Assembly (NCBI RefSeq): GCF_044647545.1
Contig: NZ_CP172818.1
Source: Escherichia coli
GTDB lineage: Bacteria; Pseudomonadota; Gammaproteobacteria; Enterobacterales; Enterobacteriaceae
Strand: one strand, 5' to 3'
Length of the DNA stretch: 64,000 nucleotides
Position 1 is the first letter of the stretch, and each line of letters opens with the position of its first letter. Of the stretch, positions 15,387 to 42,928 are shown one piece after another. The notes below the pieces were generated by a model. The model was not told where the DNA came from. It saw nothing but the letters and a program-made list of their open reading frames with translations, and did no database searches. Both the position numbers and the translations under genes were made by a program.

Positions 15387-16643
15387 ATGCTCCATCCGCG
15401 AGCCAGAACCATGTTGTTATTATCGCTCCCCGCCGTGGCAATTGGGATTGCGTCCAGTCTTATTCTGATTGTGGTGATGAAAATCGCCTCGGTATTACAG
15501 AATTTGCTCTGGCTACGACTGCCGGGAACTCTGGGGATAGCCCAGGATTCACCTTTCTGGATCATCGCCATATTAACGCTAACAGGTATTGCGGTGGGGT
15601 TGGTTATCCGTTTCAGCCAGGGGCATGCTGGACCTGACCCCGCCTGTGAACCGCTGATCGGCGCACCAGTTCCGCCCTCTGCGCTACCAGGACTTATCGT
15701 AGCATTAATTCTCGGTCTTGCTGGCGGCGTCAGCCTGGGGCCGGAACATCCGATCATGACCGTCAATATCGCCCTTGCGGTTGCGATAGGTGCTCGTCTG
15801 TTACCGCGCGTCAACCGGATGGAGTGGACTATTTTAGCCTCTGCTGGAACTATCGGCGCGCTGTTTGGCACACCTGTTGCGGCGGCGTTGATATTTTCGC
15901 AAACCTTAAATGGCAGTAGTGAAGTCCCGCTATGGGATCGTCTCTTTGCGCCGTTAATGGCGGCGGCGGCTGGTGCGCTAACCACCGGATTGTTTTTCCA
16001 TCCTCATTTTTCACTGCCCATTGCGCATTATGGGCAGATGGAGATGACCGATATTCTCAGCGGTGCAATTGTGGCGGCGATTGCCATCGCAGCAGGGATG
16101 GTTGCCGTATGGTGTCTGCCACGGTTGCACGCGATGATGCATCAGATTAAAAATCCGGTGCTAATGCTGGGAGTGGGCGGATTTATTCTCGGTATTCTGG
16201 GGGTTATTGCTGGACCAGTTTCGCTATTTAAAGGGCTGGATGAGATGCAGCAGATGGTGGCAAATCAGGCTTTCAGCACCAGCGATTACTTTTTGCTGGC
16301 CGTGATTAAACTTGCCGCTCTCGTGGTTGCTGCCGCCAGTGGCTTTCGCGGTGGGCGAATCTTCCCGGCAGTGTTTGTCGGGGTGGCATTAGGGTTGATG
16401 CTGCATGAGCACGTTCCCGCCGTTCCAGCGGCAATAACCGTTTCCTGCGCTATTCTCGGCATCGTGCTGGTGGTAACACGCGATGGCTGGTTAAGTCTTT
16501 TTATGGCGGCAGTCGTTGTACCCAATACCACATTGCTACCGCTGCTCTGTATCGTCATGCTTCCGGCATGGCTGTTATTAGCAGGTAAGCCGATGATGAT
16601 GGTCAATCGTCCGAAGCAACAGCCACCCCACGATAACGTTTAG
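15387..16643 (+). CDS. yfeO: putative ClC-like ion channel / transporter
   Basis: 418 aa polytopic membrane protein, Gly/Ala-rich helices; recognised as YfeO. Confidence 0.82.
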
Positions 16644-16757
16644 CAAAAAATGCTCTCCTTTATGATTTAAGAGTTATGGCGATGATACGGGGCTTTACCT
16701 CCCCGTAATATTGCGTTAACAGGCCGCTGACGGCTTCGATCGTGAAGGAGAATAACA

Positions 16758-17084
16758 ATGTTCAGGTCACTGTTTCTGGCGGCCGCCCTGATGGCATTTA
16801 CCCCGCTTGCGGCAAACGCAGGTGAAATCACCCTACTGCCATCAATCAAATTACAAATTGGCGATCGCGATCATTACGGTAATTACTGGGACGGTGGTCA
16901 CTGGCGCGACCGTGACTACTGGCATCGCAATTATGAATGGCGTAAGAACCGCTGGTGGCGTCATGATAATGGCTACCACCGTGGCTGGGATAAGCGTAAA
17001 GCCTATGAGCGTGGCTATCGTGAAGGCTGGCGCGATCGTGATGATCATCGCGGAAAAGGCCGCGGACATGGGCATCGCCATTAA
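16758..17084 (+). CDS. ypeC: secreted low-complexity protein (DUF2502)
   Basis: 108 aa; signal peptide [21 protein letters not shown], then extremely R/D/W/Y/H/G-rich mature region. Confidence 0.78.
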
Positions 17085-17108
17085 ACACATTTGCCAATGG
17101 AGCACAAT

Positions 17109-17196
17109 GCCTGATGCGACGCTAGCGCGTCTTATCAGGCCTACAAACCAGCTCTTTAACGCGTAGGGCGGATAAAGCATTTACGCCGCATCCGCC
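17109..17196. repeat. pair of REP sequences in opposite orientation (BIME-like) between convergent ypeC and mntH
   Basis: gcctgatgcgacgctagcgcgtcttatcaggcctac at 17109-17144 and an inverted REP-like copy (ggcggataaagcatttacgccgcatccgcc) at about 17167-17196. Confidence 0.6.
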
Positions 17197-17224
17197 AATG
17201 GTGCCAAATGCGACGCTCATTCAA

Positions 17225-18472
<1,248 letters not shown>

Positions 18473-42892: not shown

Positions 42893-42928
42893 GCCTGATG
42901 CGACGCTTGCGCGTCTTATCAGGCCTAC
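42893..42928. repeat. REP element between cysA and cysM
   Basis: gcctgatgcgacgcttgcgcgtcttatcaggcctac, near-identical to the REP copy at 17109-17144. Confidence 0.65.

Follow-up and report, generated by a model that had tools for sequence, protein, structure and literature searches.

Few genes in a published transcriptome of cells with inhibited lipoprotein transport are induced as strongly as ypeC, which is also bound by MarA and SoxS, yet is still a “y-gene”. Which kind of protein does it encode, and what could such a protein do in the envelope of Escherichia coli? We addressed these questions in a 64,000-nt window of E. coli DNA (contig NZ_CP172818.1), all of which is meant by “the window” below, starting from a first-pass annotation made from the DNA letters and their translations. 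One has to keep in mind that the gene, its DUF2502 family and its regulators are already known from databases and the literature: this is the correct re-identification of a known uncharacterised y-gene, not a discovery. What the analysis adds is a domain-plus-tail architecture, a core motif that is invariant in the family, the lack of any structural relative in the collections searched, and the rejection of both an internal repeat and a link to mntH. The features on which the argument relies are collected in Table 1.

Table 1. Features of the ypeC locus, in coordinates of the 64,000-nt window.
Feature	Coordinates	Strand	Basis or remark
marbox GCATTTTTTGCTAAA (MarA/SoxS)	16639..16653	-	exact 15-mer match; backward orientation relative to ypeC
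conserved upstream block GATTTAAGAGTTATGGCGATGAT	16663..16685	+	between marbox and putative -35; partly conserved in E. coli, Klebsiella and Enterobacter
putative -10 TAATAT	16706..16711	+	inferred, no good -35; shared by E. coli, Klebsiella, Enterobacter and Yersinia
Shine-Dalgarno AAGGAG	16745..16750	+	7 nt before ATG; sequence read, conserved in the upstream alignment
ypeC ORF	16758..17084	+	ATG start, 108 codons plus stop, 108 aa (translation read)
signal peptide	16758..16820	+	residues 1-21; predicted cleavage ANA/GE, from sequence features
DUF2502 core mini-domain	16821..16967	+	residues 22-70; AlphaFold2 pLDDT, invariant residues
low-confidence cationic tail	16968..17081	+	residues 71-108; conserved 15-residue segment, then G/R/H stretch ending GHGHRH
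REP hairpin 1	17109..17140	+	structure prediction; second copy at 42893-42928
REP hairpin 2	17167..17195	+	centroid structure; BIME-like pair with REP hairpin 1
mntH	17225..18463	-	adjoins ypeC; convergent pair

Gene Identity and the DUF2502 Family

The protein sequence reported by the first-pass annotation matches the translation of the ORF exactly, and the name ypeC is also the one found in RefSeq (ypeC / DUF2502). Pfam DUF2502 (PF10697) matches YpeC with 85.4 bits against a cut-off of 27 (E = 3.1e-24) over profile positions 1–90 of 90; no other Pfam family was found at E ≤ 1, and the NCBIfam scan returned no model. A 651-nt stretch spanning the gene (16600–17250) is present in 5424 of the 5426 complete E. 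coli genomes, with the RefSeq label “DUF2502 domain-containing protein YpeC” among the matches listed for it. Against the Klebsiella and Enterobacter orthologs, dN/dS is 0.07–0.14, with values of about 0.1 in the N-terminal half and in the tail alike. Judged by these comparisons, ypeC is a real gene under purifying selection.

The family is a small one. HMMER, run exhaustively on 1.84 billion representatives, returned 85 DUF2502 proteins, while a word-indexed search gave 278 clusters from the single YpeC sequence and 343 from a profile; all of the diverse relatives retained in our alignment (32/32) are DUF2502 proteins according to Pfam. Named members come from Enterobacteriaceae, Yersiniaceae (Serratia, Yersinia, Rouxiella, Chimaeribacter), Erwiniaceae (Pantoea) and Pectobacteriaceae (Dickeya), and a few more from Betaproteobacteria (Jeongeupia, Deefgea and a Rhodocyclaceae MAG), so that, as far as these sequences go, DUF2502 is almost restricted to Enterobacterales. 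The gene context of the distant members showed no recurrent partner gene. Two betaproteobacterial proteins, P0170 (Jeongeupia, L010:5001-5375) and P0183 (Rhodocyclaceae MAG), have a Cys-flanked end, CPPGQAKKGNC, that is absent from the enterobacterial members. The UniRef name of a Pantoea stewartii member (P0239), “Zinc ABC transporter substrate-binding protein”, was set aside as most likely a mis-annotation due to low-complexity His-rich sequence.

The most conserved stretch of the family is not the R/D/H-rich part but the start of the mature protein, x-I-x-L-x-P-G-x-S-L-x-I-G-D-R-D-x-x-G-x-Y-W-D-G-x-x-W-R-D-x-x-W-W; a signal peptide followed by a PxxxLxIGDRDxxGxYWDGxxWRDxxWW core is indeed the family pattern, and it is the one found in YpeC. 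P28, G35, G41, W44 and W49 are invariant in the family alignment and D38, Y43, D45, G46 and W55 at least 90% conserved, a pattern that repeats in a 70-sequence alignment of the core. The module G-[DE]-R-x-x-x-G-x-Y-W-D-G-x-x-W-R-D is doubled in Yersinia and Serratia proteins: the orthologs at the same locus in these Yersiniaceae (Yersinia L004:5001-5378; Serratia L006:5001-5396) have GxRxxxGxYWDGxxWRD twice, followed by a Lys/Tyr/His tail ending HHHHDHDD or HHHDHDD. E. coli itself possesses a paralog, YaaX (b0005; yaaX at L001:335-631 in K-12), which resembles YpeC in its signal peptide, its core and its Rcs induction, and in having a tail that is basic, His-rich and disordered; YpeC, YaaX and the distant members have the invariant P/G/W core in common. 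The two paralogs differ in their tails, that of YaaX being a Pro/His/Lys sequence, PPPPPRHHKKAPHDHHGGHGPGKHHR, where YpeC has its 15-residue conserved segment and G/R/H end.

With such a biased composition, the question arises whether the ORF could be spurious or decaying, its odd amino acids coming from biased DNA and corresponding to no functional protein. Other reading frames of the same DNA, on either strand, do stay open over long distances (16807-17166 on the + strand, 16851-17180 and 16846-17097 on the − strand), a fact that we attribute to the CGN/GAY/TGG/CAY/GGN codon bias of ypeC. Against a spurious ORF stand the dN/dS of about 0.1 in this very frame, the hundreds of homologs retrieved from either query with their common invariant motif, the near-universal presence of the gene in E. 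coli, its strong, regulated transcription, and the presence of a Shine-Dalgarno sequence and a signal peptide; selection and homology already refute this reading, to which we give practically no credence. Many database “homologs” are frameshifted into an I/T/A/G/M-rich frame (e.g., P0142, P0165, P0175 and P0184).

Leader, Composition, and Predicted Fold

Read from the sequence, the YpeC leader combines a basic n-region with a hydrophobic core and a site of the A-x-A type, and has neither lipobox nor Cys; a comparable hydrophobic leader is found in every DUF2502 member of the family alignment. This n/h/c layout of the Sec type agrees with the standard signal peptide initially described, as does the length of 87 residues given to the mature protein. 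As the leader is of the Sec type and devoid of a lipobox, YpeC should be a soluble periplasmic protein of 87 aa.

The extreme charged and aromatic composition that had first drawn attention to the gene is real: R, K, D, E, H, W, Y, G and N account for 98.6% of the last 74 residues. Over residues 23–108, Arg reaches 18.6%, Gly 14.0%, Asp 11.6%, His 10.5%, Trp 9.3% and Tyr 8.1%, and the protein ends in GHGHRH, in keeping with the His-rich end also pointed out at the outset. The mature protein has a pI of 9.98 and a net charge of +7.6 at pH 7 that rises to +14.4 at pH 5.5, because nine His titrate; the GRAVY of YpeC is −2.12. The recurring [RD]xxYW, GW and GY units pointed out by the first-pass annotation do not amount to a significant internal repeat. 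Comparing residues 34–70 with residues 71–108 retrieved WRDRD alone, and 85% of the shuffles that preserve composition align no worse; the apparent units merely reflect the make-up of the protein.

We ran AlphaFold2 twice, on the full-length protein with a 32-sequence alignment and on the core alone (residues 22–72) with a 70-sequence alignment. In the full-length model, pLDDT is 92, 94, 92 and 87 over the successive ten-residue blocks of residues 31–70 and exceeds 90 for 29 residues, whereas it falls below 50 at residues 73–77 and 86–108. The core-alone model (mean pLDDT 87.3, pTM 0.65) has the same secondary-structure elements as the full-length one: a beta-hairpin (EITLL / IKLQ), isolated beta-bridges via the GDRD and YWDG turns, a short helix and a second hairpin, the turn region corresponding to GDRDxxGxYWDGxxWRD. 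The mature protein had been described as looking intrinsically disordered; in these predictions, residues ~23–70 are folded (pLDDT 87–94) and residues ~71–108 alone look disordered. According to the models, YpeC is thus best seen as having two parts, an aromatic mini-domain of ~47 residues that is folded and, after it, a cationic tail of ~38 residues that is disordered, and for identity and architecture taken alone our confidence is very high. Since the Trp and Tyr residues are invariant and the hairpin has an alternating hydrophobic pattern, it is probable that the conserved Trp, Tyr and Gly make up the core and the turns rather than a sticky surface.

We found no structural relative of this domain. 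Searches of PDB sequences with phmmer and with a profile retrieved no relative of YpeC (0 hits, apart from one VHH at E = 4), Foldseek against the PDB with the full YpeC model gave no significant match (best E = 4.8), and Foldseek against BFVD returned nothing below E = 2.9.

The tail has a different kind of conservation. Its pI is 10.55 (residues 71–108), and residues 82–97 are 83% conserved among the Enterobacteriaceae orthologs, outside of which both length and sequence are variable. In a census of composition, the tails of 128 intact DUF2502 family members were compared: they consist of 19.1% Arg, 16.7% His and 15.2% Gly, 89% of them are net positive and 11% are not, and 83% have at least three His in their last 12 residues despite the turnover of the sequence, with ends such as HGHGHGHH in Enterobacteriaceae, HHHKNHHHDHDD in Serratia and HHGGHGPGKHHR in YaaX. 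Composition kept through sequence turnover is, on this comparison, the signature of a functional low-complexity region.

Genomic Context

The segment of the window considered here carries glk, yfeO, ypeC, mntH and nupC. Both statements first made about the surroundings of ypeC proved right: mntH is its neighbour and a REP pair lies between the two genes. The neighbour is on the opposite strand. The downstream elements have the properties of REP/BIME sequences, which are imperfect palindromes of ~35 nt, paired and dispersed in the genome: we found paired imperfect palindromes downstream of ypeC, and a 36-nt REP (17109-17144) recurs at 42893-42928, identical save for two loop bases, where no such match (0) is expected by chance. 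The repeated REP is that of a dispersed family, as expected for E. coli. A scan of 16500–17300 found no canonical intrinsic terminator downstream of ypeC, the sole terminator-like hairpin being inside yfeO; the REP pair thus probably marks the 3′ ends of the ypeC and mntH transcripts. No Rfam family reached its gathering score between 15000 and 20000, the mntH leader included.

Could YpeC then be a fully disordered periplasmic metal sponge tied to the Mn/Fe importer MntH, handing over or buffering Mn/Fe, for example? Its C-terminus is His-rich, and Klebsiella, Enterobacter, Yersinia and Serratia all keep ypeC and mntH in convergent arrangement. They keep the remainder of the region too, however: the whole glk-to-nupC segment is syntenic, which makes the adjacency non-specific, and one relative has a DUF2502 gene beside glk without mntH. 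As the two genes are convergent, have separate promoters with the REP pair between them, and belong to a region whose synteny is general and is disrupted in at least one relative, their adjacency is no evidence of a shared function, and we rejected the functional linkage. In addition, the documented regulators of ypeC are Rcs and MarA/SoxS, not Fur or MntR, the N-terminal half of the protein is predicted to fold, and His/Gly clusters are more typical of Zn, Ni and Cu ligands than of Mn. A metal sponge linked to MntH is, in our view, very improbable.

In the same four genera, ipdC (a TPP enzyme) and gpr (an aldo-keto reductase) are found between yfeO (or glk) and ypeC; E. coli is devoid of both.

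Promoter and Regulation

The marbox lies ~105 bp upstream of the ypeC start codon and overlaps the yfeO stop codon (16641-16643), a position due to the absence of ipdC and gpr there in E. coli. It is identical to a published bound site: GCATTTTTTGCTAAA is the MarA ChIP-seq site at ypeC, with in vitro binding at 0.3 µM, and the site is also among the SoxS ChIP-exo targets (PMC5684230); its Salmonella counterpart is a SoxS site (PMC10268841). With a marbox upstream and binding taken from this literature, ypeC has what is expected of a Mar/Sox/Rob target. The marbox, the TAATAT and, in part, the block at 16663-16685 are kept in Klebsiella and Enterobacter in the upstream alignment. A consensus scan of 16500–17300 found no full sigma-70 promoter for ypeC, which fits an activator-dependent promoter whose layout we infer from the sequence, and the conserved block is a candidate activator site, perhaps a non-canonical RcsB site. 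Transcription is predicted to start near 16718. The presumed 5′ UTR contains a small hairpin, GCCG-CTGA-CGGC, at 16723-16734; hairpins with other stems occupy the same place in Klebsiella (GGCCG...CGGCC) and Enterobacter (GGCC...GGCC).

Had ypeC been expressed under no condition, the initial reading would have fallen; published work has the gene strongly induced by envelope stress. Upon LolCDE inhibition, ypeC goes up 42- to 60-fold in the company of known Rcs-induced genes, and osmB, bdm, the wca genes, ypfG, yaiY and spy rise in the same data (PMC5105897). Where rcsB is disrupted, in an O157:H7 isolate, ypeC drops 23.7-fold (PMC5343319). yaaX is Rcs-induced, its Serratia homolog is Rcs-regulated as well, and ypeC is also present in multi-stress meta-analyses and in the response of recipients to RP4 conjugation. 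That ypeC transcription is stress-driven and heavily Rcs-dependent is strongly supported. No canonical RcsB box (TNRGAN4TCYNA, at most one mismatch) was found in 16600–16757, so that Rcs control may be indirect or exerted via a non-canonical site.

As for metals, we found no metal-responsive regulation of ypeC in the searchable literature. Zinc excess is one condition in Rcs regulon studies. The transcripts altered in every one of four silver-adapted cusS mutants (PMC10920338) include yaaX, next to zraP and the cus genes, which ties the DUF2502 family weakly to metal stress. More generally, what the searchable literature yielded on ypeC, yaaX, STM2407 and DUF2502 was regulon lists, with no functional study and no binding, localisation or phenotype data.

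Such a regulation brings to mind a periplasmic feedback modulator of Rcs that would act, by analogy with CpxP, on RcsF or IgaA or on the state of the LPS sensed by these two. The ypeC gene is among the top induced after LolCDE inhibition and is the most strongly down-regulated in the rcsB-disrupted strain, and both paralogs are Rcs-induced. DUF2502 is, moreover, nearly confined to Enterobacterales, which is the range of the Rcs system. This reading is correlative, however, and the family has a few members in Betaproteobacteria (Jeongeupia, Deefgea, Rhodocyclaceae), where Rcs is not expected; we regard such a modulator as improbable.

Comparison with Known Systems

Clusters of His or His-Gly are typical ligands of transition metals in the tails of chaperones and the loops of transporters. 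The C-termini of SlyD, HypB and UreE, the loops of ZnuA and RcnA and the (HG)n loops of ZIP/IRT transporters are short, flexible, low-complexity His or His-Gly stretches that keep their composition but not their sequence. The YpeC-family tails likewise conserve composition rather than sequence. The likeness stops there: YpeC has no sequence homology with SlyD, HypB, UreE, ZnuA, RcnA or ZIP proteins and no enzyme, chaperone or transporter domain of known type, and its metal binding is putative. The putative binding of metals or polyanions by YpeC draws some support from the His-rich C-termini found across the family; instead of binding metal, the His clusters could also serve a pH-dependent charge.

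Spy, CpxP and ZraP are, like YpeC, small, soluble, periplasmic and massively induced by envelope stress, and they appear beside ypeC in the transcriptome of LolCDE inhibition. These three are all-helical proteins of the LTXXQ family, whereas the YpeC model is mainly beta with one short helix; no LTXXQ-family domain was detected in YpeC (Pfam at E ≤ 1, and no PDB sequence or fold match). Another resemblance concerns the WXXGXW-repeat proteins (Pfam PF12779), small secreted proteins built on W-x-x-G-x-W beta-turn units, to which W44-D-G-G-H-W49 of YpeC is similar. The invariant Gly of DUF2502 is nevertheless at the third position (W-D-G-x-x-W), unlike in the W-x-x-G-x-W of PF12779, and the Pfam scan gave no PF12779 match in YpeC at E ≤ 1.

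Trp/Arg-rich antimicrobial peptides, such as indolicidin and tritrpticin, are rich in W and R with a net positive charge, and hydrophilins and LEA-like proteins combine high Gly with extreme hydrophilicity. YpeC matches both in a purely compositional way (GRAVY as above, Gly 14%), but it has ~87 aa, a conserved core predicted to be folded and many Asp/Glu, and is predicted to be kept in the periplasm of its producer. One may also conceive a hydrophilin-like envelope protectant that binds polyanions or glycans in envelope damage, acid stress or desiccation, and for which metal binding is incidental. It would coat or cross-link LPS phosphates, anionic phospholipids, osmoregulated periplasmic glucans, colanic acid in transit or peptidoglycan. 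The charge that nearly doubles at pH 5.5, the hydrophilicity and the Gly content all speak for it, as do the induction of ypeC together with colanic-acid genes in the Rcs response and the abundance of Arg and aromatic residues, the usual sugar- and phosphate-binding side chains. The conserved aromatics are in the folded core, however, and may be buried, and 11% of the family tails are not net positive. On balance, we consider a protectant with incidental metal binding unlikely.

Lastly, YpeC could inhibit a molecule with which the cell is attacked from outside, such as a lysozyme, protease or antimicrobial peptide of the host, or serve as its decoy, in the manner of the lysozyme inhibitors Ivy and MliC, which are Rcs-regulated. 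It has the regulon and the compartment in common with known proteinaceous inhibitors (Ivy is cited in the literature in this context), as well as a small folded domain with a conserved surface. Yet YpeC has neither sequence nor fold similarity to Ivy, MliC, PliG or ecotin, and a polycation binds cationic lysozymes and antimicrobial peptides poorly, so that we deem an inhibitor or decoy highly improbable.

Proposed Role of YpeC

That YpeC is an exported, selected and stress-induced two-part protein is well supported; in the reading that we prefer, it would also be an effector of the response to envelope damage, with a docking domain followed by a metal- and/or polyanion-binding tail. In such a protein, the folded domain would ensure specific docking or recognition and the tail would behave as a pH-titratable polycation; the terminal (HG)n/His cluster would capture divalent transition metals, such as Zn, Ni or Cu, and/or bind anionic envelope polymers. 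This binding would come into action when the outer-membrane barrier is breached. We give this package as a whole a probability of roughly 40%; its metal/polyanion mechanism, taken alone and resting on the make-up of the tails, we put forward tentatively, as a doubtful proposition.

A bolder view may be formulated at the level of the family. DUF2502 could be an unrecognised small fold that evolved with the Enterobacterales envelope, and YpeC and YaaX a dedicated periplasmic arm of Rcs, as feedback modulators or as LPS- or metal-sensing adaptors, which would dock via their Trp-rich mini-domain and act via a His/Arg tail switchable by both pH and metal. We offer this as speculation with little chance of being right in full.

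A folded mini-domain with a His-rich cationic tail, as opposed to a shapeless low-complexity peptide, makes cheap and concrete experiments possible, and ypeC is a well-defined target among the uncharacterised y-genes of E. coli. Should it be true that the domain is a new fold with a specific envelope ligand, YpeC would fill a gap in our view of how enteric bacteria repair or shield their envelope, a question that bears on their tolerance to polymyxins, beta-lactams and host defences.
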